From: an uncultured Anaerolineae bacterium
GTDB lineage: Bacteria; Chloroflexota; Anaerolineae; Aggregatilineales; UBA3940
Reading direction: 5' to 3'
Length of the DNA stretch: 52,360 nucleotides
Assembly (NCBI GenBank): GCA_964506005.1
Contig: CAZDLX010000003.1
Coordinates: forward strand, 1 to 52,360
The notes under the pieces are model-generated. The model was not told the origin of the DNA. It saw only the letters and a program-made list of their open reading frames with translations, and made no database searches. Of the stretch, positions 2,876 through 46,992 are shown piece after piece; the first letter of the stretch is position 1, and each line of letters opens with the position of its first letter. The translations under genes and the position numbers were made by a program.

Positions 2876-4402
2876 ATGGGCTTTGAACAGGAGCTGGACC
2901 TGCTCGCCCGCTCAAGCTACCCCATCATCTACATCCCCACCGCGGAAGAGGGCCGGGCTGAGCAGCTCATCTTTGAGGTGGCGACGGCTACCGCGCCGCA
3001 GCGCGAGGTCCATGTGTGGGACTTCGTGCTCGGCTACGAAGGCGGCGTTGCCCGGAACAACCCCGTACAGGCGCTCGACGAGGTCGAGAGGGCGCGAGAA
3101 GACGTGCCCGCGTTCTTCGTGCTGCGGGATTTCCACCGCTTCCTCGACGACGTGCAGGTGTCGCGCACGCTGCGCAACCTGGCCCGCCACCTGAGCAATA
3201 CCCGCAAGACGCTGATCATCCTCGCGCCGGGTTTCAAAGTCCCCGCCGACCTCGCCGAAGAAGTGACCGTGCTCGACCTCAACCCGCCGAGCTACGAGGA
3301 GATCGACGCGGAACTGGACGCAGTGCTCGGCCAGGTCCCGGTGCGGCTGTCGCACGGCGGGCGCGACGCGCTCGTCAAGGCCTGCCAGGGCCTGATGATG
3401 AACCGCATCCGGCTGGGGCTGGCGCGGGCCGTGGCGAGCTACGGGCGGCTCGACGAACGGGCCATCCCGCTGATGCTGGAGGAGAAGAAGCAGCGCATCC
3501 GGCGCACCGAAGTGCTCGAGTTCTGGCCCAGCGCCGAGACTGTGGACGACATCGGCGGGCTGGACATCCTCAAGCAGTGGCTGGAGCAGCGTGCGGCGGC
3601 CTTCACCGCCGAGGCGCGAGACTACGGGCTGCCGTACCCGAAGGGCATTCTGCTCGTCGGTATTCAGGGCACGGGCAAGTCGCTCTCGGCCAAAGCAACG
3701 GCCAGCCTGTGGCAGCTCCCGCTGCTGCGGCTCGATGTCGGGCGACTGATGGGCGGGCTTGTGGGCGAGAGTGAGGCCAAGACGCGCGAGATGATCCGCA
3801 TCGCCGAGGCGATGGCGCCCTGCGTGCTGTTCATCGACGAGCTGGACAAGGGATTCGCTGGGCTGGGTTCCGGTTTCGTCGGGGACTCGGGCACGAGCGC
3901 CCGCGTCTTTGGCACGATCCTGACGTGGATGGAGGAGAAGGAAACGCCGGTGTTCATCGCCGCGACGGCCAACTCCATCGAGGCGCTGCCTTCGGAGGTG
4001 CTGCGCAAGGGCCGCTTCGACGAGGTCTTCTTCATCGACCTGCCGAGCGAGCGCGAGCGGCGCGAGATATTCGAGGTGCACCTGTCCCGCGTGCGGCCTA
4101 ACCGCCTGCGCGAATTCGACCTGACTGCGCTGGCTTTCCAGAGCGAGGGCTTCAACGGCGCGGAGATCGAGCAGGCCATCTACGAGGCGATGCATGCCGC
4201 CTTCAACCAGCGGCGGGAGTTCACCACCGAGGACATCCTGCGGGCGATGGCCGCCATTGTGCCGCTGAGCAAGACTTCGCAGGAGCGCATCGAGCGGCTG
4301 CAGGAGTGGGCGCAGAGCGGGCGGTGCCGCCCGGCGAGCTCGGATGCGGCCCAGGCGGGCCTGCTGGGCCAGCTCTTCGGCGACGCCGGCCTGCCGCGCT
4401 GA
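2876..4402 (+). CDS. Ycf46-like AAA+ ATPase
   Basis: 508 aa. The N-terminus MGFEQELDLLARSSYPIIYIPTAEEGRAE resembles cyanobacterial/plastid Ycf46-type proteins as I remember them. There is a single C-terminal AAA+ module with Walker A GIQGTGKS, Walker B CVLFIDELD and a downstream ...ATANSIEALPSEVLRKGRFDE region. Confidence 0.85.
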   Translation: MGFEQELDLLARSSYPIIYIPTAEEGRAEQLIFEVATATAPQREVHVWDFVLGYEGGVARNNPVQALDEVERAREDVPAFFVLRDFHRFLDDVQVSRTLRNLARHLSNTRKTLIILAPGFKVPADLAEEVTVLDLNPPSYEEIDAELDAVLGQVPVRLSHGGRDALVKACQGLMMNRIRLGLARAVASYGRLDERAIPLMLEEKKQRIRRTEVLEFWPSAETVDDIGGLDILKQWLEQRAAAFTAEARDYGLPYPKGILLVGIQGTGKSLSAKATASLWQLPLLRLDVGRLMGGLVGESEAKTREMIRIAEAMAPCVLFIDELDKGFAGLGSGFVGDSGTSARVFGTILTWMEEKETPVFIAATANSIEALPSEVLRKGRFDEVFFIDLPSERERREIFEVHLSRVRPNRLREFDLTALAFQSEGFNGAEIEQAIYEAMHAAFNQRREFTTEDILRAMAAIVPLSKTSQERIERLQEWAQSGRCRPASSDAAQAGLLGQLFGDAGLPR

Positions 4403-4404
4403 GT

Positions 4405-4857
4405 ATGCCAGATTCCCCACGCGACCTGTTCCCGGACGACCCGGATTTCGAGCCGACCGGGCGCGAGCCGGAGCTGCCGGGCTATGAGAGCAGCCGTGCG
4501 CCGATGCTTGGCGGCAACCGGCGTCAGTGGCCGTCGATCTCGGCCTACCTGCTCGCCGAGCAGCACCGCGCGCACCGGCGCGGCGACATGGCCCGCGTGT
4601 GGAGCCTGCGCCGGCTGCGCTCCCGCATCCAGCTCCGGCACGTCGAGGCGCGCGAGGAAAGCCTGCTGACCGGCGAGCCCGTGCCGCCGATGACTGACGC
4701 GGAGGCGCTCGCCGAGATCGTGGCGGAGCGCGAAGAAGTCGTCGAGGCACTGGAGCAGTGCCACCGCTGGCTGCGCCTGCGCCGCGCGGCGGAGCTTGAG
4801 CAGAGCCTTGCCGTGATAGACGAGGTGCTCGATTACTGGCAGGGGCGGGTGGGGTGA
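4405..4857 (+). CDS. hypothetical protein (150 aa), probably translationally coupled to the AAA+ gene
   Basis: ATG 4405 lies 2 nt after the AAA+ stop and is in frame with the 4306..4857 track ORF. It has an acidic/Pro-rich N-terminus and a helical Arg/Glu-rich C-half (EALAEIVAEREEVVEALEQCHRWLRLRRAAELEQ). No known motif recognised. Confidence 0.55.
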   Translation: MPDSPRDLFPDDPDFEPTGREPELPGYESSRAPMLGGNRRQWPSISAYLLAEQHRAHRRGDMARVWSLRRLRSRIQLRHVEAREESLLTGEPVPPMTDAEALAEIVAEREEVVEALEQCHRWLRLRRAAELEQSLAVIDEVLDYWQGRVG

Positions 4858-5019
4858 AACCTCACCCCTTCCGGCGCTTCCCTCAGAAGCATCTCCCTCC
4901 CCTCTCCGCGGCGCGGAGAGGGGCAGTGGGCCATGTGTCGTCCTTGCACCGGCTGCGCCATCTTCCCCTCTTCCGCCGGGAGAGGGGCCAGGGGTGAGGG
5001 AAAAGGGTCGGGGGGTGAG
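4851..5019. repeat. block of GC-rich palindromic (REP-like) elements
   Basis: Hairpins are GGGGTGA-aacc-TCACCCC (4851-4868), CCCCTCTCCGC-ggc-GCGGAGAGGGG (4899-4923) and an imperfect CCCCTCTTCCG..GGGAGAGGGG (4965-4987). GGGGTGAG copies at 4991-4998 and 5012-5019 are inverted relative to CTCACCCC at 4861-4868. The core matches elements at 15501, 40704, 40861 and 51078. Confidence 0.6.
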
Positions 5020-5050
5020 GCCTGGCTCTCTGTCGAAATGCCGCCTGGCC

Positions 5051-5059
5051 TGCTATACT
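5051..5059 (+). promoter_or_regulatory. candidate extended -10 promoter (TGcTATACT) for the DUF1257/DUF2997 pair
   Basis: TGCTATACT lies about 100 nt upstream of ATG 5160, directly after the palindromic block. The -35 is weak (TGTCGA). Consensus match only. Confidence 0.35.
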
Positions 5060-5159
5060 CTAGAATGTGTGTGCGCATTCCCGCACGCGAACATCTCAAA
5101 GCGAACGCCAAGAACAACGCCGGGGCTGGCCGCAGCCCGGGCCGCTGAAGGGGTGGGCG

Positions 5160-5534
5160 ATGTCTCACTTTACACGGGTAAGAACACAACTGCGCGATCT
5201 CCAGACGGTCCGCCGGGCGCTCGAAGACCTGGGCTACGAGGTCGAAGAGGGTCGCACGGTGCGCGGCTACGGCGGCCAGGAGACGGACGCCGACCTCATC
5301 GTGCGGACCGGCTCGCAGTACGACCTGGGCTTTCGCCAGGAGGGTGGGGCGATCCTCATGGTGGCGGACTTCTGGGGCTTGCGCGTCGACCGCGAGGTGT
5401 TCCTGAACCGCCTCACGCAGCGCTACGCCTACCTGACGGTGCTGGAGCAGGCGCAGACGCAGGGCTGGCAGTCTGTCACGGAGGAGACCCAGCCCGACGG
5501 CAGCATCCGGCTTGTGATGCAGCGCTGGGAGTAG
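5160..5534 (+). CDS. DUF1257 (Ycf35-like) protein
   Basis: 124 aa: MSHFTRVRTQLRDL...DADLIVRTGSQYDLGFRQ...ADFWG...LTQRYAYLTVLEQAQTQGWQSVTEETQPDGSIRLVMQRWE. This follows the Ycf35/DUF1257 pattern as I recall it (MSHF...DGSIRLV.QRW). The RBS GAAGGGG precedes ATG 5160. The track start at 5067 was rejected. Confidence 0.8.
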   Translation: MSHFTRVRTQLRDLQTVRRALEDLGYEVEEGRTVRGYGGQETDADLIVRTGSQYDLGFRQEGGAILMVADFWGLRVDREVFLNRLTQRYAYLTVLEQAQTQGWQSVTEETQPDGSIRLVMQRWE

Positions 5535-5540
5535 GGCGAT

Positions 5541-5744
5541 ATGGCGCAGCGACAGGAGATCGAGTTCGTCATCCGGCCTGATGGCACCGTCGAGGAGAGG
5601 GTGACGGGCGTCGGCGGGCCAGCCTGTGAAGACGTGACGCGCGGCATCGAGCAGGCGCTCGGCGAGATCCAGCACCGTGAGCGAACCGCCGAGTACTACC
5701 GCACCACGGAGAGCGCGAGCGACGAAGTCACGACGAGCGGCTGA
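5541..5744 (+). CDS. DUF2997-like small protein
   Basis: 67 aa. IEFVIRPDGTVEERVTGVGGPACEDVTRGIEQALG fits the small single-Cys DUF2997 pattern that usually accompanies DUF1257. The gap from the preceding gene is 6 nt. Confidence 0.7.
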   Translation: MAQRQEIEFVIRPDGTVEERVTGVGGPACEDVTRGIEQALGEIQHRERTAEYYRTTESASDEVTTSG

Positions 5745-5769
5745 TCAGCTCTCAGGAGTGAGTGACACG

Positions 5770-5798
5770 ATGCCCCGCAGGCCGCTGTGGGGCATTTT
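5770..5798 (+). terminator. hairpin plus short T-run between the DUF2997 gene and the Hsp70 module
   Basis: ATGCCCCGCAG-gccg-CTGTGGGGCAT forms an 11-bp stem with one G.U pair, followed by TTT(C). It is possibly a weak terminator or attenuator separating two transcription units. Confidence 0.35.
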
Positions 5799-5831
5799 CA
5801 CAACCGGGGGTATCAGCGGAGGTTGGGCAAC

Positions 5832-6035
5832 ATGAGCGCGCCGGATGAAAAGCCACCCGAAGACAGGCCAGGCCGCCTGCTGCCGGTGGAGGTCGAGGTC
5901 TACATCGAGGCAGACGGCTCGGTGACGTTCGCCGATCTCGAGGCCGGCATGCTGCCGGTTGCCTTTGAGCTCAATCCTGACGAGCCGCTGGCCTGCGATG
6001 TGCCGCCGGTGGACGAGGATTCCGGCGAGGACTGA
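5832..6035 (+). CDS. small acidic hypothetical protein (67 aa)
   Basis: ATG 5832 is preceded by GCGGAGG. The sequence is MSAPDEKPPEDRPGRLLPVEVEVYIEADGSVTFADLEAGMLPVAFELNPDEPLACDVPPVDEDSGED. The stop lies 1 nt before the next start. The I.ADGSV core loosely recalls the preceding DUF2997-like protein. Confidence 0.45.
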   Translation: MSAPDEKPPEDRPGRLLPVEVEVYIEADGSVTFADLEAGMLPVAFELNPDEPLACDVPPVDEDSGED

Positions 6036-6036
6036 T

Positions 6037-6630
6037 ATGTGCCAGCTACTCAGCGATTGGCTTGCCACCCGCCGGCTGCGCGGTGAAGTCGCAAGGTGGC
6101 GAGCGCGCAGCTACGGCGAGTGTATAGAGACGATCCGCGGGCTCCGCCGCGTGCTGGCCACCCAGGAGCGCGTCGGCGGCGACCTGCGCCGCCAGCTTGC
6201 CGCGCGCGACGTGCAGATCGCCGGGCTGCGTGCCGAGTACGCCGCCCTGCAGGCGCGGCTGGCGGGTGCCGAGAGCGCGACGGCGAAATCCGAGCGGCTG
6301 GCCCTGTTCCGGCAGCTTCAGCCCGTGCTCGTGCAGCTCCCGACAGTGCGCGCCGCGGTCGAGAGCGGCGCGGACCTCACCGCGCGGGACGTGCTGGAAC
6401 TGCTCGCGCCGCTGGATCAACTGGTGGCCGACCTCGGGCTGGCCTGCATCGGCGAGGCGGGCGATGAGACCGCCTACGACGCCCGGCTGCACCGCGCGGT
6501 GGGGCGTGGCGCGGGCTCGGCGCAGCCCGGCGACCGGGTCCGCGTGCGCTACGTCGGCTATGAGCTGGACGGCGAGGTCATCGCCAGGGCGGAGGTCACG
6601 CTCTCCGCGCCGGACACTGAAGACACATAG
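6037..6630 (+). CDS. GrpE-like nucleotide exchange factor (divergent)
   Basis: 197 aa from ATG 6037. The N-half is coiled-coil-like (LRRQLAARDVQIAGLRAEYAALQARLAGAE). The C-terminal part, IGEAGDETAYDARLHRAV...GDRVRVRYVGYELDGEVIARAEVTLS, follows the GrpE pattern (G..FDP..H.A...V...GY...G.V.R.A.V.V). It lies immediately upstream of an Hsp70 gene. Confidence 0.65.
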   Translation: MCQLLSDWLATRRLRGEVARWRARSYGECIETIRGLRRVLATQERVGGDLRRQLAARDVQIAGLRAEYAALQARLAGAESATAKSERLALFRQLQPVLVQLPTVRAAVESGADLTARDVLELLAPLDQLVADLGLACIGEAGDETAYDARLHRAVGRGAGSAQPGDRVRVRYVGYELDGEVIARAEVTLSAPDTEDT

Positions 6631-6642
6631 ACCTGCGGACTG

Positions 6643-8277
6643 ATGAAGAAAGTAGCCATCGATTTCGGAACAACAAATACCGTCGTGGCCGTGTGGCGCG
6701 AGGCTACCGGCGTGCCCGAAACGGTGCGCCTGGCCGGGCTTGGCGCGAACGGGGCCTCGGGGCAGGCCTGGCTCGTACCGTCGCGTCTCTACGTGCAGGA
6801 CGGTGCGGCGAGCAACGGCGCAGGCATCATTGCCGGGCAGGCAGTTGCCGGGGGTGGTTACGACGTGCAGGGCGACGAGCGCTACTTCGCCTCGTTCAAG
6901 CGTGGGATTGCCGCACGCAGCCGCCCGCTTGCCCGCGTGATCGACGGGGCGGAATGGGACGAGGCGCGCGCGGGTGAGGCATTTCTGCGGGCGGTGCTCG
7001 CCGCCGTGCGCGAGCAGGAAGGCGGCATCGACGAGCTGATCTTCACCGTACCGGTGCAGAGCTTCGAGCGCTACCTGCAGTGGCTGCGCGACGAAACCGC
7101 GCTCGTCGGAGGTGAACGGGTGCAGCGCGTGCGCGTCGTGGACGAGAGCACCGCGGCGGCGCTTGGCTACGACGTGCGCACACCGGGCGAGCTGATTCTT
7201 GTCGTGGACTTCGGCGGCGGCACGCTCGACGTGTCGCTGGTGCGGATGCCGGTCGCCGAGGAGGGCAGCGGTGTTGTGCTGCAGGACGACAACCGCCAAC
7301 CCCGCCGGGCGGCGCGGGGCGGCGACGTCGAGGCACGGGTGATTGCCAAGGCGGGGCGCGTGCTCGGCGGTGACGACGTGGACCACTGGCTGCTGGAGGA
7401 GCTTCTGGAGCGTACCGGCGCCAGCCGTGCAGAGGTCGGGGACGCGTACAGCCAGCTCAAGCTGGCCTGCGAGGCGGCCAAGATCCGGCTTTCCGAGCAC
7501 GAGTCCGCGGAGGTCAGCGTGTTCGACCCCGACACGTTCCGCACGTACCGCGCCACGTTCACGCGCACCCAGCTTGAAGACCTGCTCGACCGCCGGGGGT
7601 TTTTCGGCGCGTTCCAGCAGACGGTGAACAAGGTGCTGCGGGCAGCGCGGGCGCGGGGCATCTTCCCCGAGGACATCGGCGCGGTACTGCTCATCGGCGG
7701 CACGTCGCAGCTTCCGTCGGTGCGGCGGCTGGTCCGCACACAGTTCGGTGCGGAGCGCGTCAGCGAGGACCGGCCCTTCGAGGCGGTGGCGCATGGCGCG
7801 CTGAAGCTGGCCGCCGGCATGGGGCTCGATGACTTCCTGTATCACGCTTACGGCGTGCGCCACCTGAGCCCGGTGACGGGGCGGCACGAGTGGGAGGAGA
7901 TCATCCCGGCGGGGACGCGCTACCCGCTGGCGGAGCCGCCGGTGCTGATCCTCACCGCGTCTCGCGACGGGCAGGAGGCGCTGGAGCTCGTCATCGGCGA
8001 GGTGGAGGAGAGCGCGGGCGGCGTCGCCGAGGTCATGTTTGGCGGGCGGGCGATCCTGATGGTCGACGGCGCGATCGAGCTGCGGCAGGTCATCCCGCTC
8101 AACGACGAAGACGGCTCGCGGACCGTTGCGCAGCTCGACCCGCCGGGTAAGGCGGGTGAAGACCGCGTCGAAGTCATCTTCAGCGTCGACGCCAACCGCA
8201 CGCTGCGCGTCACCGTGACCGACCTGCTGACCCACCGGGTGCTGCTCGAGAACGCGCCGGTGGTCGAACTGCGCTGA
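6643..8277 (+). CDS. non-canonical Hsp70 family protein (short, no helical lid)
   Basis: 544 aa. Actin-fold ATPase motifs are present: VAIDFGTTNTVVAVW, VVDFGGGTLDVSLV, VLLIGGTSQLPSVRRLV. The protein ends after a beta-rich segment (VEVIFSVDANRTLRVTVTDLLTHRVL), about 90-100 aa shorter than DnaK. Confidence 0.85.
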   Translation: MKKVAIDFGTTNTVVAVWREATGVPETVRLAGLGANGASGQAWLVPSRLYVQDGAASNGAGIIAGQAVAGGGYDVQGDERYFASFKRGIAARSRPLARVIDGAEWDEARAGEAFLRAVLAAVREQEGGIDELIFTVPVQSFERYLQWLRDETALVGGERVQRVRVVDESTAAALGYDVRTPGELILVVDFGGGTLDVSLVRMPVAEEGSGVVLQDDNRQPRRAARGGDVEARVIAKAGRVLGGDDVDHWLLEELLERTGASRAEVGDAYSQLKLACEAAKIRLSEHESAEVSVFDPDTFRTYRATFTRTQLEDLLDRRGFFGAFQQTVNKVLRAARARGIFPEDIGAVLLIGGTSQLPSVRRLVRTQFGAERVSEDRPFEAVAHGALKLAAGMGLDDFLYHAYGVRHLSPVTGRHEWEEIIPAGTRYPLAEPPVLILTASRDGQEALELVIGEVEESAGGVAEVMFGGRAILMVDGAIELRQVIPLNDEDGSRTVAQLDPPGKAGEDRVEVIFSVDANRTLRVTVTDLLTHRVLLENAPVVELR

Positions 8278-8289
8278 GAGGCGGGACTC

Positions 8290-9252
8290 ATGGCTGAAGA
8301 CCCGAAGACAATCCGCGATGCACCCGCGCTCGGCGGGCCGCGCCGCCAGCGGGACCCGCGCCTGTGGGGCGCGCTGCTGGGCCGCGATGACCGCCGGCGC
8401 CGTGAGGCCGCCCGTACCATTCGCGCGCTAGAGGCGGATCGGGACTACGCTCGGCAGCTTATCGACACGATCCCCACGCTGCCGCCTGCCCAGCGCGCCG
8501 TCGCGGGGGATGCACTGTCGATGCTGGGCGACGTGCGCTTCTCGCCACCTTACTATCTCTCCGAAATGATCTACGTGACCGCCGGCGAGGCCATCCTCGG
8601 CAGCAGCCGCTTCCCCGAGGAATACCCCGTTCACACGGTCGAGGTGGGGGGCTTTGCGCTGGCACAGCACCCGGTGACGCTCTCCGCTTTTGCCGCGTTC
8701 GAGCAGGCGACCGGCTACCGGCGCGTGCGCGGACGGGAGCGCGAATATGGGGCGATGCTCAACGCACCGGTCGTGCACGTCTCCGCGAGAGATGCCGAAG
8801 CGTACTGCCGCTGGCTGAGCGGCGAGACGGGCCACCACTACCGGCTGCCGACCGAGGCGGAGTGGGTGCTCGCGGCGCGCGGCCCGGCGGACCGCCGCGC
8901 CTACCCGTGGGGCGACCAGTACGACGACCTGTGCGCGAACGGCTGGACGGGCGGCTCGGCGCAGCGGCTGTGCGCCGTTGGGCTGTACCCCGAGGGGCGC
9001 GGACCGTACGGGCATGACGATCTCGCCGGGAACGTCTGGGAGTGGTGCTCGTCGCTGTACTGGCCGTACCCGTACCACGCGAACGACGGGCGCGAGGACC
9101 CCGGCGCGGAGGGCGAGCCCCGCGTGATGCACGGGGGCTCGTGGCGCAGCAGGCCGCTCTCGCTGCGCTGCGCGGCCCGCCAGGGCGAGCCGCCCGCCGA
9201 CAGCTTCGACGTGGTCGGCTTCCGGCTGGCGAGGGATGGCTCGGGTGGTTGA
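8290..9252 (+). CDS. FGE-sulfatase (SUMF1-like) fold protein lacking the catalytic Cys pair
   Basis: 320 aa with RLPTEAEWVLAARG, GNVWEWCSS, HGGSWRS and VGFRLARD motifs. The loop that carries C-x4-C in true formylglycine-generating enzymes reads GGSWRSRPLSLRCAAR, with neither Cys. The N-terminal ~80 aa are helical. Confidence 0.85.
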   Translation: MAEDPKTIRDAPALGGPRRQRDPRLWGALLGRDDRRRREAARTIRALEADRDYARQLIDTIPTLPPAQRAVAGDALSMLGDVRFSPPYYLSEMIYVTAGEAILGSSRFPEEYPVHTVEVGGFALAQHPVTLSAFAAFEQATGYRRVRGREREYGAMLNAPVVHVSARDAEAYCRWLSGETGHHYRLPTEAEWVLAARGPADRRAYPWGDQYDDLCANGWTGGSAQRLCAVGLYPEGRGPYGHDDLAGNVWEWCSSLYWPYPYHANDGREDPGAEGEPRVMHGGSWRSRPLSLRCAARQGEPPADSFDVVGFRLARDGSGG

Positions 9253-10183
9253 TCACGGCTTCGAGCCCGCTTACCTTGCGCTGCACCGCAGCGGCGAGCT
9301 TGCCCGCCGCGCCGGGCGCGCCCGTGCCGCGCTGCACGGCTGCCGGCTGTGCGGCTGGGACTGCGGCATCGACCGGGCGCGGGAGCTGGGGCCGTGCCGC
9401 ACAGGGACGCAGGCGCTCGTCGCGACGGCGTATCTGCACTTCGGTGAGGAGCGTCCGATCAGCGCGGGGCGCGGCTCGGGCGCGATCTTCTTCGCCAACT
9501 GCGATCTGCGCTGCCAGTTCTGCCAGACCGCACGCTGGAACATTAAGGGGCAGGGCAGGCCGCTCACCGAGCGCCAGCTTGCCGACGTCATGCTCGACCT
9601 CGCGGGGCAGGGTGCGGCGAACATCAACCTCGTCACGCCGACGCACGTCGTGCCGCAGATTCTCGGCGCACTGGCGCTGGCTGCGGACGATGGGCTGAGA
9701 ATCCCGCTGGTGTGGAACTCCGGCGGCTACGACTCGCCGCAGACGCTGGCCCTGCTCGACGGTGCGGTGGACGTCTACCTGCCTGACATGAAATACAGCG
9801 ATGCCTCACTTGCCCGGCGGCTGAGTGGTGTGCGCGATTACCCGCGCACCAACCGGGCGGCGGTGCTGGAGATGCACCGGCAGGTCGGCCACCTGCGGCT
9901 CGACGCGGCTGGCGCGGCTTGCCGCGGGGTGCTGGTGCGGCATCTCGTCATGCCGGGGCATGACGAGAACACCGCCGGGGTGCTAGAATGGATTGCGGAG
10001 CACCTCGGGCCCGGCACCTACCTCAGCCTCATGGACCAGTACCGCCCGGCTTACCGCGCCTTCGCGCGGGAGGGCATCGACCGGCCGCTCCGGCCCGAGG
10101 AGTACGCCCGCGCCCGCTTGCATGCCGACCGCCTCGGCCTGCGCCGGCTGGACGGCAGCCTATTACTTGAACCGGCATCATAG
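9236..10183 (+). CDS. radical SAM protein, PflX-like (COG1313-type activase homologue)
   Basis: 315 aa. The CDLRCQFCQ motif (C-x3-C-x2-C) lies in FFANCDLRCQFCQTARWNIKG. An N-terminal Cys cluster CRLCGWDCGIDRARELGPC is present. There is no C-terminal SPASM-type Cys cluster. The start overlaps the FGE-fold gene by 17 nt. Confidence 0.8.
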   Translation: MARVVDHGFEPAYLALHRSGELARRAGRARAALHGCRLCGWDCGIDRARELGPCRTGTQALVATAYLHFGEERPISAGRGSGAIFFANCDLRCQFCQTARWNIKGQGRPLTERQLADVMLDLAGQGAANINLVTPTHVVPQILGALALAADDGLRIPLVWNSGGYDSPQTLALLDGAVDVYLPDMKYSDASLARRLSGVRDYPRTNRAAVLEMHRQVGHLRLDAAGAACRGVLVRHLVMPGHDENTAGVLEWIAEHLGPGTYLSLMDQYRPAYRAFAREGIDRPLRPEEYARARLHADRLGLRRLDGSLLLEPAS

Positions 10184-10199
10184 CAGCGGCAGAGTGACC

Positions 10200-11228
10200 A
10201 TGACTGAACAGAGAACAGACACCCGCCTCGTTGAGCAGTTCACCGCGTCGAACGGCGCGCGCATCTTCCGCGTGCCGATGGATGTGTTTCCTAATTACGT
10301 CGGCTACGCACACCTCGTCGAGCACGGTGGCGAGCTCACGCTGGTCGACGTCGGCTCGGGCTTCGGCAGCTCGCACGACGACCTGCTGGCGGGGCTTGAG
10401 CAGGTCCGCGAGGCGCACGGGCTCGACGCCAGGCTCAGCCGCATCGACCGCATCCTCATCACGCACGGGCATATCGACCACTTCGGCGGCCTGATGCGCG
10501 TGAAAGAAGCCGCGCCTCAGGCGGAGGTCGGGCTGCACCGGCTCGCCCGGCCCGTGCTGGTGAGCTACGACGAGCGCGTGCTGCTCAGCCGTACGGCGGT
10601 CGAGGACTTCATGCGGCGCGCGGGTGTGCCCGAGGAGCGCCTGGCAGACCTGCTGGAGATGTACATGCTCGGCAAGCGGGAGTTCAAGCAGGTGCCGGTC
10701 GATTTCACGTTCGGCGATGGCGACCGCATCGGCAACACGTTCGAGGCGATCCACGTGCCGGGCCACGCGCCGGGGCTCGTCATGCTGAAGGCCGGCGATA
10801 TTCTGCTCACTTCGGATCACGTGCTGCCCCATACCAGCGTGGCGCTGGCCCCCGAGAGCATCATGCCTTACACCGGCATCGGCCACTACATCGAGTCGCT
10901 GGAGAAGGCGCTGCGCGTCGAGGGTGTGCGGCTGGCGCTCGGCGGGCATGAGGAACCGGTCGAGGACTACTACGGTATGGTGAGAAACACGCTGGACGGC
11001 GCGCGGGGCAAGGTCGAGCGCGTGTACGCCGAGTGCGCCGAGCCTAGCACGATCTACGAGATCGCGCGGCGGATCTACTCCACGCTCGACGGCTACGGCG
11101 AGCTGCTCAAGCTGGAGCAGACCGGCGCGCGTGTCGAGTATCTGAACCAGCGCGGGCGCGTCATGATCGAAAACCTCGACGCGCTGGAGGCCGAGCACAG
11201 CCCGCCGCTGCGCTACCGGCAGGTCTGA
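10200..11228 (+). CDS. MBL-fold metallo-hydrolase
   Basis: ATG 10200 gives MTEQRTD.... The H-x-H-x-D-H motif is ILITHGHIDHFGG, with a later HVPGHAPG. It starts 16 nt after the radical SAM stop. The track ORF start at 9993 overlaps the previous gene and was rejected. Confidence 0.8.
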   Translation: MTEQRTDTRLVEQFTASNGARIFRVPMDVFPNYVGYAHLVEHGGELTLVDVGSGFGSSHDDLLAGLEQVREAHGLDARLSRIDRILITHGHIDHFGGLMRVKEAAPQAEVGLHRLARPVLVSYDERVLLSRTAVEDFMRRAGVPEERLADLLEMYMLGKREFKQVPVDFTFGDGDRIGNTFEAIHVPGHAPGLVMLKAGDILLTSDHVLPHTSVALAPESIMPYTGIGHYIESLEKALRVEGVRLALGGHEEPVEDYYGMVRNTLDGARGKVERVYAECAEPSTIYEIARRIYSTLDGYGELLKLEQTGARVEYLNQRGRVMIENLDALEAEHSPPLRYRQV

Positions 11229-11279
11229 GCCCGGGCGGCATGCCCGGCTGCTGTATCCCCATCAGCGAGAGGACTGGCA

Positions 11280-11690
11280 ATGGTCGACCCCGACGTCAAA
11301 GGCAAAGTCTTTGAGCCGTTCACGATGGCCGTCGAGCGCGGCAAGGTGCGCGAGTTCCTGCTGGCCACCGGCGAGGACGTAGAGGCATACCAGGGCGAGG
11401 ATGCGTCCGTCCCGCCGACGTTCGCCACGGTGCTGCGCTTCTGGGCCGGCGGCGGGCTCGAACGGGCGCTCAACGAGCTTGGCGTCGACATTACCCGGGT
11501 GCTCCACGCCGAGCAGTCGTACGAGTACCTGCTGCCCGTGCGCGTGGGCGACACGATCACCGGCACGACGCGCGTCAGCGACGTTTACAACCGCGCTGGT
11601 ATGGACTTCGTCGAGTTCACCACGCAGTATATGAACCAGGACGGCGACCCCGTGCTCAACGACCGGGCGCTGATCGTGGTGAGAGGGTAG
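11280..11690 (+). CDS. MaoC-family dehydratase, N-terminal-type (non-catalytic hot-dog) subunit
   Basis: 136 aa: MVDPDVKGKVFEPFTMAVERGKVREF...PPTFATV...LHAEQSYEY. This is typical of the HadA-like partner that precedes a MaoC dehydratase. RBS is GAGAGGA. Confidence 0.75.
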   Translation: MVDPDVKGKVFEPFTMAVERGKVREFLLATGEDVEAYQGEDASVPPTFATVLRFWAGGGLERALNELGVDITRVLHAEQSYEYLLPVRVGDTITGTTRVSDVYNRAGMDFVEFTTQYMNQDGDPVLNDRALIVVRG

Positions 11691-11699
11691 GGGGCTGCC

Positions 11700-12134
11700 A
11701 TGTCGCTGTTCTACGAGGACGTCAACGCGGGCGACGAGCTGCCGCCGCTGGTCAGAGGCCCGATCGAGCCCATCGACCTGGTGCGCTACGCCGGGGCGTG
11801 CGGTGACTTCAACCCGATCCACACCGTGCCGAGTGTCGCGCAGGAGGTCGGGCTGGATGGCATCATCGCGCACGGGATGCTGGTCATGGCCTATGCCGGG
11901 CAGGTGGTGACCAACTGGGCGGGCCCCGGCACGATGCGCCATTTCAAGGTGCGGTTCAGCGGCATGACGGTGCCGGGCGAGACGCTGGTCTGTGAGGCGC
12001 GCGTCACGGGCAAGGAGTCGGCGGACGGGCAGCACCTGGTGCGGGGCCGGCTGACCGTGAAGGGTCAGGCCGACGACTCACTCAAGCTGAAAGGCGAGTT
12101 CACCGTCGCGCTGCCGTCGAAGGCAGAGGACTGA
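11700..12134 (+). CDS. MaoC-like (R)-specific enoyl-CoA hydratase/dehydratase
   Basis: 144 aa with the hydratase motif YAGACGDFNPIHTVPSVAQEVGLDGIIAHGML. It starts 9 nt after the partner gene. Confidence 0.85.
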   Translation: MSLFYEDVNAGDELPPLVRGPIEPIDLVRYAGACGDFNPIHTVPSVAQEVGLDGIIAHGMLVMAYAGQVVTNWAGPGTMRHFKVRFSGMTVPGETLVCEARVTGKESADGQHLVRGRLTVKGQADDSLKLKGEFTVALPSKAED

Positions 12135-27784: not shown

Positions 27785-27814
27785 TTCACCCGGCGGAAGG
27801 GCCTGTGCTACACT
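27785..27814 (+). promoter_or_regulatory. candidate promoter of the CHAT-island operon
   Basis: TTCACC, an 18-nt spacer, then TGcTACACT (extended -10), about 36 nt upstream of ATG 27850. RBS is GGAAGGGTAGG. Confidence 0.35.
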
Positions 27815-27849
27815 ACATACAGCGGCCAACTGGTTGGAAGGGTAGGCAG

Positions 27850-29130
27850 ATGGAGCGTGACACACGGCGCGACCCGGGCGGTTACTTCATCATCGCGCAG
27901 TGGTACGACACCGTCCGGAGTGCGCTGCTCATGCTGGAGGAGCAGGGCGGCCAGGGGTGGTGGTATCTGATCGTGCGCGTGTGGCGCGAGGAAGCACTGG
28001 TCTGCCGGTTCATCGATCTGGTCCGCCGGCTTGAGATCGAGGGCCCGCTCCTGCTCGACGAAAAGCTGGACTCGCTCGGCCCGCCGCTTGAGCCGGCGAT
28101 CTACCTGGACGCCAAAATCGGCGACGACACGGCAGTCCGGCTCGCCAGGGAGAGCGAAGGCGGGCGTGCGGTGGTGGTGAACTTGCACCCGCCGAACACA
28201 ACACAGGCGGGCACGCTGCCGGGCATCGACGTGGTACGCATCGTCGATACGCGACGTTCGCGCGGGCTCGCCTCAACCGAGATTCCCGAAGCCGTCTTCG
28301 ATCTGGCGCGGGGGCTTCCAACCGGCACGGAGCCGCCCGAACAGCGCCCGCTCACGCCCGGCAGCATCCCTCCGATGGGTGCGCCGCAACCTGGGCCAGT
28401 TGCACCCTCAGCGCCGGTACCCGGTCCATCCCGCACTACGGATGTGCCCCGCATGGAGCCGCGCGAAGAGGAGCTTGAGGAAACCGCGCACCCCGACGCG
28501 GGCGAGATCGTCTACGGTGATGAGGTTCACGGGGACAAAGTCACGGCGGGCAACATCACGAACAGCATGGGCGTCGCCATCGGGCCGGGCGCGCAGACGC
28601 ACGTCTACCTCAACTCGCCCGAGCCGGAGACGCGCGAGCAGCCCCGCCGCTTCGAGGCGGCCTTCCCGAAGGAGTGCCACCTCGGCGCAGAGCAGAAGCT
28701 GTGGGTCGCCGTTATGCTGCCCGACGCGGAGTCGCCGTTTGGCGAGCGCGCGGACGACCACGACATCGCCTCGACGGATGAGGTCGGCGTGCCGATGCCG
28801 GTCGATGGGCGGACAGGCCAGCTCAAAGCCGTCGACGTGGAGGTGACGGTCACGGCGACGGGCTTCCGGGTAGAGGGAGCCAGCACGAAGAAGCTGACCG
28901 TGTGGCCCGACGGCAGACTCGCCAAGCGCTGGTTCCAGCTCGAGCCGGACGCGCCCGGCGAGCAGGAGATCCACCTCGAAGTGTGCATCGACGGGCGCCT
29001 GCTGCAGGAGATCGACCTTATCACCACCGTCTACGAGCCGCGGAAGAAGGCGCGCAGCCTGCTGAACCTGTCGCTGACGATCGCGTCGTTCGGGCTGACG
29101 TTCACATTTGCAGCCGGAGCGGGCACGTGA
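27850..29130 (+). CDS. hypothetical multidomain protein, partner of the downstream CHAT protease
   Basis: 426 aa from ATG 27850. The parts are an unknown ~165-aa N-domain, a Pro-rich linker, the repeat motif EIVYGDEVHGDKVTAGNITNSMGVAIGPGAQTHV (28504-28605), a beta-rich C-domain (FEAAFPKECHLGAEQKLWVAV...EIHLEVCIDGRLLQEIDLITTVYE) and the hydrophobic tail SLLNLSLTIASFGLTFTFAAGAGT. No family recognised. Confidence 0.7.
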   Translation: MERDTRRDPGGYFIIAQWYDTVRSALLMLEEQGGQGWWYLIVRVWREEALVCRFIDLVRRLEIEGPLLLDEKLDSLGPPLEPAIYLDAKIGDDTAVRLARESEGGRAVVVNLHPPNTTQAGTLPGIDVVRIVDTRRSRGLASTEIPEAVFDLARGLPTGTEPPEQRPLTPGSIPPMGAPQPGPVAPSAPVPGPSRTTDVPRMEPREEELEETAHPDAGEIVYGDEVHGDKVTAGNITNSMGVAIGPGAQTHVYLNSPEPETREQPRRFEAAFPKECHLGAEQKLWVAVMLPDAESPFGERADDHDIASTDEVGVPMPVDGRTGQLKAVDVEVTVTATGFRVEGASTKKLTVWPDGRLAKRWFQLEPDAPGEQEIHLEVCIDGRLLQEIDLITTVYEPRKKARSLLNLSLTIASFGLTFTFAAGAGT

Positions 29131-29172: not shown

Positions 29173-30819
29173 GTGATCGATTACCTGGATTTTGAAGTGC
29201 TCATCAGCGAGACGGCTGACGGCTACCGGGCGCGCGTCCTCGACTCGCCGGGCGGGCAGGTCAGCACAACCTTTGCTGTACCATTCACAAAGGCTGAGAT
29301 CACGGCGTTCTACCAGCGGCTTGACAGGCCGCGCTACGATGACGGCAACCTCGCGGCGGCGCGGGACTACGGCGGCAGGCTGTTCGACGCCGTCTTTACC
29401 GGCGAGATGCTCGGTACGCTGCGAGCCAGCCTGCTGCGCGCAACAACGGAGAACAAGGGTCTGCGCTTCCGGCTGCGCTTTGACGACGAAGCAGCGCCCG
29501 TCGCGCAGCTTCCCTGGGAAGCATTGTACTACGCGCCTCTGGACCGCTTCTTTGCGCTCTCGGCCTACACACCGCTGACACGTTTCCTGGAGATGCCGGA
29601 GCAGGTCGAGCCGCTGCCGCTGGAGCCGCCTCTCCGGATGCTGGTCATGGTCTCCAGCCCCGGCGACCTGGACCAGCTGGACGTCGACATGGAGTGGTCG
29701 GTCATCAACGACGCGCTGGACCATCTGGAGGACGCAGGCTACGTCAGCGTCGAGCGCATGGACACGGCGACGCTCTCCGCGCTGCAGGAGAAGCTCAGCG
29801 AGGGGACGTACCACATCTTCCACTACATCGGGCATGGCGGCTTCGACGAGAACACCCAGACAGGCGAGGTGATCTTCGAGACGGAGGACGAGCATGCCCG
29901 CCCGGTCTCGGGCAGCGAGCTCGGCACTATGCTGCACGACCACCGCAGCCTGCGCCTTGTCATGCTCAACGCCTGTGTCTCGGGTAAGGGATCGCACGTG
30001 AGCCAGTTCCGCGGGGTGGCGCAGCGGCTGGTGCAGCAGGGCCTGCCGGCAGTCGTCGCGATGCAGTCGAGCGTATCAGATCTGGCGGCAATTGCGCTGT
30101 CCAGCCGGCTGTACGCGGCGCTGGCCTCCGGCTTTCCGGTTGACGCGGCGCTGGCGGAGGGCCGCAAGGCGGTCTTCGCGCTCGGCGACAACATCGAGTG
30201 GGCGAACCCGGTGCTGTACCTGCGCGCCCCCGATGCCCGCGTGTTCGACGTGGCGCTCGACGAAGCCGGGCTTGCCCAGCCGGACGAGCGTGTCGTCGGC
30301 GTGCCGCTCAGCGCCGAGGAGAGCGTCGCCAGCCCGACGACCCGGGAACCGGTGGAACAGGCCCAGCCCGACGACCCGCGCCGCCCCCGGGTGGACAGCG
30401 TGTACGGCGACCTCGTCGAGGGCGACAAGATCATCCACGGAGACGAGGTCGGCGGGGACAAGATCACCGTTGGCAACATCACGGGGAGCAGCGGCATCGC
30501 CATCGGGCGGGGCGCACGCGCCAGCGTATCGGGTTCCGGCGGAGACTCGCCCTTCCAGCTGGTGCGCGAGAAGCTGCCTGAGCTGGGCATCGACGAGAGC
30601 GCGCAGGAGGAAGCCGAGTTCGCCGTCCGCCAGATCGAGAAGCAGGACGCCTCCGCCGAACCGGACATCGACCGGATCGACCGCTGGCTCGGCGTGCTGG
30701 AGGAAGTCGCGCCCGCGGCGCTGGAACTGCTTGTCGACGCCGTGGCCAACCCCGGCGCGGCCGTCAGCGCCGGAATGAGGCTGGCGATCAAGACGTGGCG
30801 GCGGGCGCGCAAGCCGTAG
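29173..30819 (+). CDS. CHAT-domain (caspase-like) protease with C-terminal repeat motif and helical tail
   Basis: 548 aa, GTG start after AAAGGGGGAG. A His/Cys dyad sits in the expected context: YHIFHYIGHGGF (His codon 29833-29835) and LRLVMLNACVSG (Cys codon 29974-29976). Further along are ...LPAVVAMQ...AALAEGRKA, the motif DSVYGDLVEGDKIIHGDEVGGDKITVGNITGSSGIAIGRGARASV (30391-30528), and a ~95-aa helical tail. Confidence 0.85.
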   Translation: MIDYLDFEVLISETADGYRARVLDSPGGQVSTTFAVPFTKAEITAFYQRLDRPRYDDGNLAAARDYGGRLFDAVFTGEMLGTLRASLLRATTENKGLRFRLRFDDEAAPVAQLPWEALYYAPLDRFFALSAYTPLTRFLEMPEQVEPLPLEPPLRMLVMVSSPGDLDQLDVDMEWSVINDALDHLEDAGYVSVERMDTATLSALQEKLSEGTYHIFHYIGHGGFDENTQTGEVIFETEDEHARPVSGSELGTMLHDHRSLRLVMLNACVSGKGSHVSQFRGVAQRLVQQGLPAVVAMQSSVSDLAAIALSSRLYAALASGFPVDAALAEGRKAVFALGDNIEWANPVLYLRAPDARVFDVALDEAGLAQPDERVVGVPLSAEESVASPTTREPVEQAQPDDPRRPRVDSVYGDLVEGDKIIHGDEVGGDKITVGNITGSSGIAIGRGARASVSGSGGDSPFQLVREKLPELGIDESAQEEAEFAVRQIEKQDASAEPDIDRIDRWLGVLEEVAPAALELLVDAVANPGAAVSAGMRLAIKTWRRARKP

Positions 30820-44753: not shown

Positions 44754-45791
44754 ATGACAGACTCTGAGCGCGACCAGAACGAGGCTGAAGAGCAGAGCCT
44801 CGACGAGATTATTGCCGAGAACGAGCGGCTGCTGCAGGAGTACCTGGCGCAGGGCGACGTGGAGGCCCCGGTAATCGAAGACACCCTGCCGGACGGCCAC
44901 CGCTCGGGCTTTGTGGCGGTGGTTGGCAAGCCGAACGTCGGCAAGTCGACGCTGATGAACGCGCTGCTCGGCGAAAAGGTCGCCATTGTGAGCCCGAAGC
45001 CGCAGACGACGCGAGAGCGCCAGCTCGGCATTTACACGGACGACGACGCGCAGATTGTCTTCGTCGATACGCCGGGTATTCACGAGGCACGGACCAAGCT
45101 CGGCGAGTACATGGTGGATGTCGCGAAGTCCAGCATACCTGACGCCGACGTCATCGTGTTCTTAGGCGATGTTTCGGGGCCGCCCACACGCGCAGACGAG
45201 GCCATTGCCGAGGTTATCGGCAAGGCCGGGGGTGTCCCGGTGATTCTAGCGCTGAACAAGCGCGACCTGCTCGCCGATGAGACGCAGGAGCAGGAGAACG
45301 TCGCGGCATACCGGGCGCTGCTGCCCAATGCGCAGCCGCTATTGCTCAGCGCGACAGAAGGCTATAATGTAGACGCGCTGCTGGAGCTGATACTTGAGAA
45401 CCTGTCGGAGGGGCCGCGGTTTTACCCCGCGGACCGGCTCACCGAGACGCAGGTGCGCGACACCGTCGCCGAGATCATCCGGGAGAAGGTACTGCTCCAG
45501 TACGAGGACGAGGTACCGCATTCCGTCGCCGTGCAGGTGACGCAGTTCAAAGAACGAAGCGAGGATCTGACCTACATTGCGGCGACGATCTTCGTAGAGC
45601 GAGATAGCCAGAAACGCATCCTGATCGGCAAGGGGGGCAGCGCGCTCAAGGAGCTGGGGCGCCGGGCGCGCGCGGAGATCGAGCCGATGCTCGGCACGCA
45701 GGTGTTCCTCGAGCTGTGGGTCAAGGTGCTGAAGAACTGGCGACGAGACGTGAGCGCCCTGCGCCGGCTCGGATATGAAGAGCGGCGCTAG
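44754..45791 (+). CDS. era: GTPase Era
   Basis: G1 VVGKPNVGKST, G3 DTPGIH, G4 NKRD and a C-terminal KH domain (...IFVERDSQKRILIGKGGSALKELG). ATG 44754 gives an unusual ~50-aa acidic N-terminal extension. An in-frame GTG near 44857 would give a conventional length. Confidence 0.9.
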   Translation: MTDSERDQNEAEEQSLDEIIAENERLLQEYLAQGDVEAPVIEDTLPDGHRSGFVAVVGKPNVGKSTLMNALLGEKVAIVSPKPQTTRERQLGIYTDDDAQIVFVDTPGIHEARTKLGEYMVDVAKSSIPDADVIVFLGDVSGPPTRADEAIAEVIGKAGGVPVILALNKRDLLADETQEQENVAAYRALLPNAQPLLLSATEGYNVDALLELILENLSEGPRFYPADRLTETQVRDTVAEIIREKVLLQYEDEVPHSVAVQVTQFKERSEDLTYIAATIFVERDSQKRILIGKGGSALKELGRRARAEIEPMLGTQVFLELWVKVLKNWRRDVSALRRLGYEERR

Positions 45792-45829
45792 GCTTGGATG
45801 GCCTTACCGGGCAGAAATACGGGAAAAGA

Positions 45830-46987: not shown

Positions 46988-46992
46988 CTTCT

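Follow-up and report, generated by a model that had tools for sequence, protein, structure and literature searches.

The window analysed here, a stretch of 52,360 nucleotides from an uncultured Anaerolineae bacterium (contig CAZDLX010000003.1, positions 1 to 52,360), encodes a lidless Hsp70 and, directly upstream of it, a divergent GrpE-type nucleotide-exchange factor. On the open reading frame (ORF) map both genes belong to a co-directional + strand string that runs uninterrupted from 2876 to 12134, with short gaps or overlaps, and is operon-like in appearance. An initial annotation of the DNA had singled out four of these genes, which encode an acidic protein of 67 aa (p67, 5832-6035), the 197-aa exchange factor (6037-6630), the 544-aa Hsp70, composed of a nucleotide-binding domain (NBD) and a β-sandwich substrate-binding domain (SBD) (6643-8277), and an accessory 320-aa protein of the formylglycine-generating enzyme (FGE)-sulfatase fold (8290-9252). 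The tight packing of the four, their sizes and the gaps of 1, 12 and 12 nt between them were all confirmed on the ORF map, each gene lying on the + strand with an ATG start. The view that these four genes make up the module did not hold up: the string is longer, and the conserved unit begins upstream of 5832. Also on the + strand, this upstream part holds genes for a Ycf46-type AAA+ ATPase of the classical AAA clade (2876-4402, 508 aa, PF00004 and AAA_lid_3), a lineage-specific protein inserted between the AAA+ and DUF1257 genes (p150, 4405-4857, 150 aa, without significant Pfam match), a DUF1257/Ycf35 homologue with an MSH start (5160-5534, 124 aa, PF06868 at 6e-29) and a small DUF2997 protein (5541-5744, 67 aa, PF11211 at 5e-21).

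The Hsp70 is matched by PF00012 with 107 bits (7.4e-31). Against the NCBIfam DnaK equivalogs PRK00290 and TIGR02350 it scored 101.8 and 97.8 bits, where the cut-offs are 648 and 822; with about 100 bits against such thresholds, it is not a DnaK orthologue, and the earlier view that this is not the housekeeping pair is supported. A profile of the subfamily aligns to DnaK from residue 3 to approximately 485-500, covering the NBD, linker and β-sandwich, and then stops. The AlphaFold2 (AF2) model (pLDDT 80.8) consists of an NBD (residues 1-390) and an all-β domain (394-542), with no helix beyond residue 390, i.e. no lid helices, and Foldseek placed it at a TM of ~0.72 to the two-domain ATP-state structures of DnaK and BiP. 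Profile alignment and model thus both bear out the initial description of an Hsp70 that ends after the β-sandwich, without lid or tail. The ATPase motifs, described there as intact, are invariant across 25 subfamily members (D7, G9, T10, K86, E168, D189-G193 and G352-G353). In DnaK, R167 is a J-domain contact. The arginine aligned with it is at least 90% conserved in the subfamily, so a J-protein could still act in trans. As the initial annotation had stated, the window ORFs contain no J-domain (phmmer with the DnaJ, CbpA and HscB J-domains as queries), and there is no dnaJ or hrcA nearby; over 95 related loci, linkage of a J-protein to the Hsp70 was at about chance level. In a Prochloron metagenome-assembled genome, a J-domain protein (L069:207-1139, 1e-22 to the DnaJ J-domain) is encoded directly upstream of the lidless Hsp70, the sole such case among the 95 loci. 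A species-genome scan found the subfamily across cyanobacterial orders, including Gloeobacterales-like genomes, the reduced-genome symbiont Richelia and Prochloron. On these alignments, the window protein is a member of a lidless Hsp70 subfamily that spans cyanobacteria and Anaerolineae. The mainstream cyanobacterial members have no conserved neighbours, with UvsE-like, transporter, YchF and other genes found upstream.

Taken alone, the 197-aa protein had no match to the Pfam GrpE family and reached 19.9 bits against an NCBIfam cut-off of 167 bits; the Pfam scan of the four proteins grouped by the initial annotation matched the Hsp70 and the FGE-fold protein (PF00012 and PF03781) and returned nothing for p67 or the 197-aa protein. 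When a profile of 21 family members was used, the top matches were four solved GrpE structures (1dkg, 3a6m, 8gb3 and 4ani). The best of these, E. coli GrpE (1dkg_A, E=5e-6), aligned over residues 53-195, from the coiled coil through the β domain, and PF01025 is a precomputed match in several relatives. The family profile thereby confirms the GrpE-like character that had been proposed, and by this comparison the 197-aa protein is truly homologous to GrpE, if remotely. With the GrpE-like profile as query, a sensitive search retrieved 453 clusters at E<=1e-10, fusions to helix-turn-helix (HTH) and von Willebrand A (vWA) domains among them. As seen from these profile matches, the GrpE-like partners make up a broad family whose N-termini differ (p67, HTH, vWA). 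On cyanobacterial contigs (L102-L116, e.g. L109:9719-10387), a standalone protein of ~225 aa joins a Cro/C1-type HTH (HTH_26) to a coiled coil and, at the C-terminus, a GrpE-like domain; it is a member of the window factor's family that has no adjoining Hsp70, and a DNA-binding nucleotide-exchange factor would be unusual. Two further members (P0298 and P0312) carry an N-terminal vWA domain, and such fusions hint that exchange factors of this family may act as targeting adaptors in several systems.

The small p67 is acidic, as first noted, with a pI of 4.05 and 19 D+E versus 3 K+R. It has a conserved hairpin motif, LPVEVE(I/V)YI-DG-V-FADL, and matched nothing in the family libraries searched (Pfam, PADLOC and NCBIfam among them). 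In two lineages (P0139 and L088) p67 is fused to the GrpE-like protein. When p67 was tested for paralogy with DUF2997, hhalign aligned a 13-residue hairpin only, with a probability of 43%.

The genes ycf46 and ycf35 have been listed as 'hypothetical chloroplast frames' for decades and are conserved in cyanobacteria and algal plastids. By sequence and gene order, the segment 2876-5744 is a cassette of the ycf46/ycf35 type, with a full-length Ycf46-like AAA+ protein, an MSH-start DUF1257 protein and DUF2997, into which p150 is inserted. The best PDB relatives of the AAA+ protein are p97/CDC48 D2 domains (1e-50); it shares 46% identity over 475 aa with a Dolichospermum AAA protein adjoining DUF1257 (L070), and matches phrog_8638 over its full length (1e-155). 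Judged by these relatives, it belongs to the classical unfoldase clade. The DUF1257 protein yielded a confident AF2 model (pLDDT 89.9), for which Foldseek found no fold match in the PDB (best E=0.14, TM<0.4). An MSH N-terminus is described for Ycf35, itself described as uncharacterised (PMC13060386). The cyanobacterial ycf46 operon shows strong stress induction that is ppGpp- and RpaB-dependent (bioRxiv 10.1101/2025.07.21.665879), and in S. elongatus is among the strongest stress and growth-arrest signals. Behind the p150 gene, 302 nt are non-coding, the widest gap in the gene string; among related loci, only L007 has a p150 homologue at the same position (42% identity).

The AAA/DUF1257/DUF2997 triad was also seen on mobile elements. 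In a Planktothrix plasmid (L093) it lies by replication and partition genes, and in a Ca. Manganitrophus plasmid (L095) by JAB-domain and DUF3150 genes, in both cases with no Hsp70 nearby. The lytic Rhizobium phage RHph_I4 (L119, 60899-64221) encodes a full-length Ycf46-like AAA+ protein (phrog_8638), then DUF1257 and DUF2997. A Ycf46-like AAA+ protein is likewise encoded by the lytic Mycobacterium phage Catdawg (L120, gp97); in cluster-O-type mycobacteriophages the AAA+ gene has no annotated DUF1257 or DUF2997 neighbour, the adjacent 'hypothetical protein' genes having lain outside the scan. In cyanomyoviruses DUF1257 occurs alone.

Gene neighbourhoods were compared across the assemblies of Hsp70 homologues, a species-genome scan and a metagenome scan with the GrpE-like profile. 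Within the window clade, i.e. Anaerolineae loci with an Hsp70 identity of 51-93%, counted where long enough to judge, the core order DUF1257-DUF2997-p67-GrpE-like-Hsp70 was found in all (L001, L007, L008, L087-L090 and L096-L099). A p67 homologue is present in every one of these loci, and DUF2997 always directly follows DUF1257. A Ycf46-like AAA+ gene lies upstream of the core in L001, L007, L008, L087, L088 and L096-L099; L089 has an AAA-AAA-Lon protein further upstream instead, and in L090 no Ycf46-like AAA+ is in range. Conservation of the neighbourhood was therefore found for p67, the GrpE-like factor and the Hsp70, which are syntenic in the Anaerolineae relatives, but not for the FGE-fold protein, which is not constant. 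The surroundings are of a housekeeping kind (sucCD, acyl-CoA dehydrogenases, tkt, zwf, PEPCK, ruvA and ruvC). L001, L087 and L088 keep the same flanks, with sucCD upstream and MaoC dehydratases plus acyl-CoA dehydrogenases or pentose-phosphate genes downstream, and this synteny reaches relatives with Hsp70s 64% (L087) and 61% (L088) identical to that of the window.

Outside the Anaerolineae, plasmid pPg_01 of Pseudanabaena galeata encodes a GrpE-like protein (1e-22 against the GrpE-like profile), an Hsp70 36% identical to the window's, DUF1257, DUF2997 and a Ycf46-like AAA protein, the five families of the window in another phylum and another order. At L091 (NZ_CP112875.1 129817-137974) the order reads GrpE, Hsp70, DUF1257, an AAA_15/21 ATPase with a 167-aa protein, DUF2997, Ycf46-like AAA and WD40; the pPg_01 cluster has toxin-antitoxin genes (RelE/ParE and PIN) on its upstream side. 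A Spirulina genome has a DUF2997-GrpE-like-Hsp70 trio, and in two genomes of another Hsp70 clade (L121 and L122) the Hsp70 is followed by a GrpE-like protein at 1e-37. In an Aggregatilineales clade (43-47% identity) the Hsp70 gene is followed by one for a 380-404-aa HEAT protein. From these gene orders, the association of the lidless Hsp70 with the GrpE-like factor is robust, with four independent arrangements, and that of the AAA+ protein with DUF1257 and DUF2997 robust and very widespread. The joining of the chaperone pair to the cassette is also robust: both the Anaerolineae clade and the Pseudanabaena plasmid have it, and Spirulina and three other cyanobacterial loci show it in part. Full-text searches of the accessible literature found no paper describing the combination of Hsp70/GrpE-like genes with a ycf46 cassette, and just five papers with any mention of DUF1257 or DUF2997. 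Upstream of the L121 and L122 gene pairs lie genes for two secreted proteins, of which one has an HExxH-like motif, as well as an ABC-transporter set that includes ABC_transp_aux and DUF4340.

The FGE-fold protein (PF03781 at 1.6e-48) has ToxD as its best PDB relative (7spq, 3e-32), then CalU17, with the FGEs of the PDB at 1e-16 to 4e-20. In an alignment to S. coelicolor FGE (6muj), 'GGSYLCHDSYCNRYRVAAR' stands opposite 'GGSWRSRP---LSLRCAAR' of the window protein; the LCHDSYC segment of 6muj faces RSRP and a 3-residue gap, leaving a shortened Cys-x4-Cys loop that is Cys-less. This alignment confirms an FGE fold without the catalytic Cys pair, as originally read, and by the same alignment the protein is certainly not a formylglycine-generating enzyme. 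No sulfatase domain, which the initial annotation had named as a point that would speak against its reading, was found in Pfam scans of 37 window ORFs. The proposal that the fold serves as a binder rather than an enzyme stands in part: the protein is not formylglycine-generating, but 'non-catalytic' is not established, because the Cys-less PvdO, ToxD and CalU17 sit in biosynthetic pathways. With it the FGE superfamily gains a further member without these cysteines, in a genetic context that speaks against a role in sulfatase maturation. The N-terminal 90 residues were considered as a HEAT repeat akin to the HEAT partners of other loci, and this was rejected (no Pfam match, hhalign probability 2%). 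In a test for a diversity-generating retroelement (DGR), no repeat involving 8290-9252 was detected, nor a reverse transcriptase among the scanned ORFs.

Orthologues of the FGE-fold protein are present in L001, L008, L087, L088, L096 and L097 and missing from L007, L089 and L090, so that, with the window, seven of ten informative relatives have one; in two of these (the window and L096) it directly follows the Hsp70, within 0-12 nt. In L001, L008 and L087 a receiver+HEAT gene comes between Hsp70 and FGE; L097 has a weak receiver/HEAT-like gene and a HEAT gene before the FGE, and L088 a weakly HEAT-like 229-aa protein. After the Hsp70, L098 has receiver+HEAT (where the contig ends), L007 and L089 HEAT only, and L090 an unrelated kinase. 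Because the gene after the Hsp70 varies in this way (HEAT, receiver+HEAT, FGE, WD40 or nothing), the FGE-fold protein is taken as a lineage-specific accessory.

The next gene, on the same strand, encodes a radical S-adenosylmethionine (SAM) protein (9236-10183, 315 aa) and shares its first 17 nt with the end of the FGE gene, as in translational coupling. The protein has a CxxxCxxC motif and scores 27.1 bits against PF04055, just under the 29.5-bit cut-off, and has no relative in the PDB or NCBIfam. The radical-SAM gene directly follows FGE in L001, L008, L087, L088, L096 and L097, and a HEAT gene in L007. A metallo-β-lactamase (MBL)-fold hydrolase (10200-11228, +, 342 aa, PF00753 at 2.6e-15) comes after it, as also in L001, L008, L088 and L096, and is absent in L087. 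Module membership of both genes is uncertain. The string ends in two MaoC-type dehydratases (11280-11690, 136 aa, and 11700-12134, 144 aa, both +).

Taken together, we favour, at about even confidence, a reading in which gene order and homology point to a dedicated, non-housekeeping, ATP-driven protein-remodelling module with two linked halves. The initial annotation had proposed a dedicated NTP-driven remodelling or sensing module; the remodelling part is retained, while the unit is redrawn around DUF1257-DUF2997-p67-GrpE-like-Hsp70, with FGE as an accessory. The 5' half would be the AAA+/DUF1257/DUF2997 cassette, as in the cyanobacterial ycf46/ycf35 stress operon, and the 3' half the lidless Hsp70, a GrpE-type exchange factor dedicated to it and the small acidic partner p67. 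The Hsp70 would bind and release client segments in an ATP cycle, with its private GrpE-like factor speeding the release of ADP. The lack of a lid would make for fast-on/fast-off binding, suited to recognition or hand-over rather than to prolonged retention. The N-terminal appendage of the exchange factor (p67, separate or fused) may tether or regulate the pair. On the analogy of DnaK-ClpB, clients might then pass to, or come from, the CDC48-like AAA+ unfoldase; both the coupling of the Hsp70 cycle to the AAA+ protein and the direction of hand-over are inferred from that analogy. The variable protein after the Hsp70 (HEAT, receiver+HEAT, WD40 or FGE) could be a lineage-specific client, adaptor or regulator, and J-domain stimulation, if needed, might be supplied in trans or by one of the small proteins.

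A number of points weigh against this reading. The link between the Hsp70 pair and AAA+/DUF1257/DUF2997 rests on gene order, and spacing alone cannot define the unit, because all of 2876-12134 is tightly packed. The lidless Hsp70 was found near a ycf46 cassette in just 4 of ~65 cyanobacterial loci, and the Aggregatilineales clade has Hsp70 and HEAT only. Plasmids and phages carry the triad with no Hsp70, so each half can function on its own; and as DUF1257 has no recognisable fold relative, its role in the model is a guess.

A narrower alternative, which we hold quite possible at somewhat below even confidence, is that FGE, radical-SAM and MBL genes form a separate unit for small-molecule or peptide modification that merely lies downstream of the Hsp70 operon in one Anaerolineae sub-lineage. 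The 17-nt overlap, the adjacency of FGE and radical-SAM genes wherever FGE occurs, and the origin of the closest solved relatives (ToxD, CalU17 and PvdO) in the toxoflavin, calicheamicin and pyoverdine pathways all speak for this, as do the lack of FGE in L007, L089, L090 and every other Hsp70 clade, and the presence of another gene between Hsp70 and FGE in L001, L008, L087 and L097. However, the radical-SAM gene stays in L007 without FGE, so the two are no obligate pair, and FGE lies within 0-12 nt of the Hsp70 in the window and L096. Where FGE is lacking, the slot after the Hsp70 usually holds a putative protein-binding module (HEAT or WD40), which suggests that the position is functional. 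The initial annotation had raised a different possibility, that of a conflict or anti-phage system, in which a core of Hsp70, exchange factor and AAA+ NTPase would control, or sense through, a variable FGE/HEAT/WD40 'sensor'. The variable gene after the Hsp70 does encode domain types common in conflict systems (HEAT, WD40, FGE/FGS and receiver; PMC7159879), and CoCoNuT type III pairs a lidless Hsp70-like domain with HEAT repeats (PMC11090510). The vWA fusions in the GrpE-like family, the mobility of the AAA/DUF1257/DUF2997 triad on plasmids and in phages, and lidless DnaK-like domains fused to protease-effector modules point the same way. The Pseudanabaena copy, on a plasmid by RelE/ParE and PIN toxin-antitoxin genes and split by a defence-type pair of AAA_15/AAA_21 ATPase genes, keeps a defence reading alive. 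We nevertheless consider it improbable. PADLOC-DB v2 returned only the AAA domain against IetA (residues 247-480) and a fragment of the Hsp70 NBD against PDC-M61B (9e-9), with no IetS or other partner, and NCBIfam IteA scored 72 bits against a 510-bit cut-off. The operon lacks a nuclease, protease, TIR, pore-forming or other effector gene, the scanned ORFs include no McrBC or GAP1 GTPase, and neither DGR repeat nor reverse transcriptase was found. The chromosomal position is fixed among housekeeping genes in relatives with Hsp70s 61-64% identical, the Hsp70 subfamily is kept across cyanobacteria including the reduced-genome Richelia, and lytic phages carry the triad themselves; further, the ATPase motifs of the Hsp70 are intact, unlike those of CnuD. 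The proposal of a candidate anti-phage system thus finds no positive PADLOC evidence and a housekeeping, syntenic neighbourhood. Nor do the published systems correspond to a linkage of Hsp70/exchange-factor pairs with FGE, as the initial annotation had suggested: they pair Hsp70 and GrpE with GAP1-N2 GTPases, and FGS domains with vWA-MoxR (PMC7159879).

Alternatively, the lidless Hsp70 might be an ATPase that binds RNA or ribosomes or acts as a scaffold, along the lines proposed for CnuD, with HEAT or FGE proteins as co-scaffolds and HTH-bearing GrpE-like partners targeting it to nucleic acid. The pairing of Hsp70 with HEAT mirrors CnuD (PMC11090510), cyanobacterial GrpE-like partners carry a Cro/C1-type HTH, and the activity of the ycf46 operon is anti-correlated with ribosomal gene expression (bioRxiv 10.1101/2025.07.21.665879). 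We regard this as distinctly improbable, given that the catalytic ATPase residues and the β-sandwich SBD are well conserved, that the presence of a dedicated exchange factor implies that nucleotide is really cycled, and that the operon has no RNA-binding domain or RNase. It is hardly credible that the locus is nothing more than the housekeeping DnaK-GrpE pair of the organism, placed in unusual surroundings. The Hsp70 gene does adjoin that of a GrpE homologue, as in canonical grpE-dnaK operons. However, its 97.8-101.8 bits compare with DnaK equivalog cut-offs of 648-822, it has no lid or C-terminal tail, the GrpE-like protein falls under the Pfam and NCBIfam thresholds, and neither dnaJ nor hrcA is nearby. 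In cyanobacteria, moreover, orthologues of the lidless Hsp70 coexist with canonical DnaK1-3, which counts against a housekeeping role.

The remodelling reading can be taken further, although we put forward this extension as doubtful: the lidless Hsp70 and GrpE-like factor would be the missing partners of Ycf46, Ycf35 and DUF2997 in one hitherto unrecognised multi-component remodelling machine, conserved in trans across cyanobacteria and partly in plastids, plasmids and phages, in which a variable N-terminal module (p67, HTH or vWA) targets the Hsp70, and p67 or DUF2997 replaces the J-domain. The gene link, found independently in Anaerolineae and on a cyanobacterial plasmid, offers a first functional lead for ycf46/ycf35, and makes it a testable idea that the cassette is a protein-remodelling device working with a specialised Hsp70. 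A widespread subfamily of lidless Hsp70s is also delineated here, together with a family of no fewer than 450 GrpE-like clusters whose targeting modules vary, which has a bearing on the way an Hsp70 cycle can operate when neither a lid nor a J-protein in cis is present.

Elsewhere in the window, the - strand encodes at 1881-2846, divergently from the AAA+ gene, a protein of 321 aa that has a signal sequence of the lipoprotein type and lacks a Pfam match; L001, L087 and L088 have a gene of similar size and placement, again without Pfam match. A 441-aa protein without Pfam match (27805-29130) is followed by a CHAT-domain protein (29173-30819, PF12770, 1.7e-26), and the two genes have in common a 99-nt stretch of 76% identity (28494-28592 and 30417-30515), a sign that the encoded proteins may share a repeat domain at the C-terminus. 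The region 44754-47934 encodes an Era-type GTPase (44754-45791), then a 397-aa protein without significant family and, as third gene, a 313-aa protein that consists solely of Clp N-terminal repeats, without an ATPase domain; Era is the only GTPase among the scanned ORFs of the window. A promoter and terminator scan for operon boundaries performed at chance level, and Rfam and tRNA scans of the window gave no matches.

Among known systems, canonical DnaK-DnaJ-GrpE (E. coli, 1dkg) has in common with the locus an Hsp70 NBD with all catalytic motifs, a β-sandwich SBD, a GrpE homologue gene that adjoins the Hsp70, and the arginine equivalent to R167. In contrast, the window Hsp70 has no α-helical lid or C-terminal tail, there is no J-protein in the window, both proteins fall far under orthologue thresholds, and the remote exchange factor is accompanied by p67; in place of the canonical order hrcA-grpE-dnaK-dnaJ, the genes lie within an AAA+/DUF1257/DUF2997 operon. 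The DnaK-ClpB bi-chaperone disaggregase provides a functional analogy only. There too, an Hsp70 and exchange factor are encoded with a hexameric AAA+ unfoldase, whereas the AAA+ of the window is a single-ring, CDC48-D2-like Ycf46 protein without the ClpB M-domain, and its cooperation with the Hsp70 is suggested by gene linkage. ToxD (7spq), CalU17 (7ml6) and PvdO (5hha) have the FGE-sulfatase fold and, like the window protein, lack both catalytic cysteines; ToxD also has the N-terminal 'A-x-A-L-x-x-L-G-D-x-R' helix motif. Unlike these three, which are encoded in secondary-metabolite or siderophore clusters, the window FGE lies between Hsp70 and radical-SAM genes, and no biochemical function carries over from them to it.

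CoCoNuT type III systems (Bell et al., eLife 2024, PMC11090510) combine a lidless Hsp70-like NBD/SBD (CnuD/CnuCD) with a HEAT partner, fused or adjacent, and in this resemble several of the loci described here. However, none of the ten operon proteins or other scanned ORFs is an McrB-like NxD GTPase or CnuC/McrC (DUF2357), no HEPN component is present, and the window has a dedicated GrpE-like factor; the Walker A-like motif of CnuD is degenerate (PMC11090510), whereas the motifs of the window Hsp70 are intact. The GAP1-N2 GTPase-centric systems of actinobacteria and firmicutes (Kaur et al., eLife 2020, PMC7159879) likewise link a non-housekeeping Hsp70+GrpE pair to other NTPases, and FGS/FGE domains have been flagged as non-enzymatic binding modules in the same study. 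In that study, FGS domains occur in vWA-MoxR and not in Hsp70 systems (PMC7159879), and the operon of the window has no GAP1 GTPase, tubulin, FNIII or FNIII-DnaJ protein. The cyanobacterial and plastid ycf46-ycf35-DUF2997 set (e.g. the Synpcc7942_0416-0418 stress operon) has the AAA+ protein, ~46% identical over the full length, the MSH-start DUF1257 and DUF2997 in common with the window, all co-directional and adjacent. It differs in that normally no Hsp70/GrpE-like gene is adjacent, the two being joined in the window and on the Pseudanabaena plasmid, and in that the host here is a non-phototrophic Anaerolineae bacterium.

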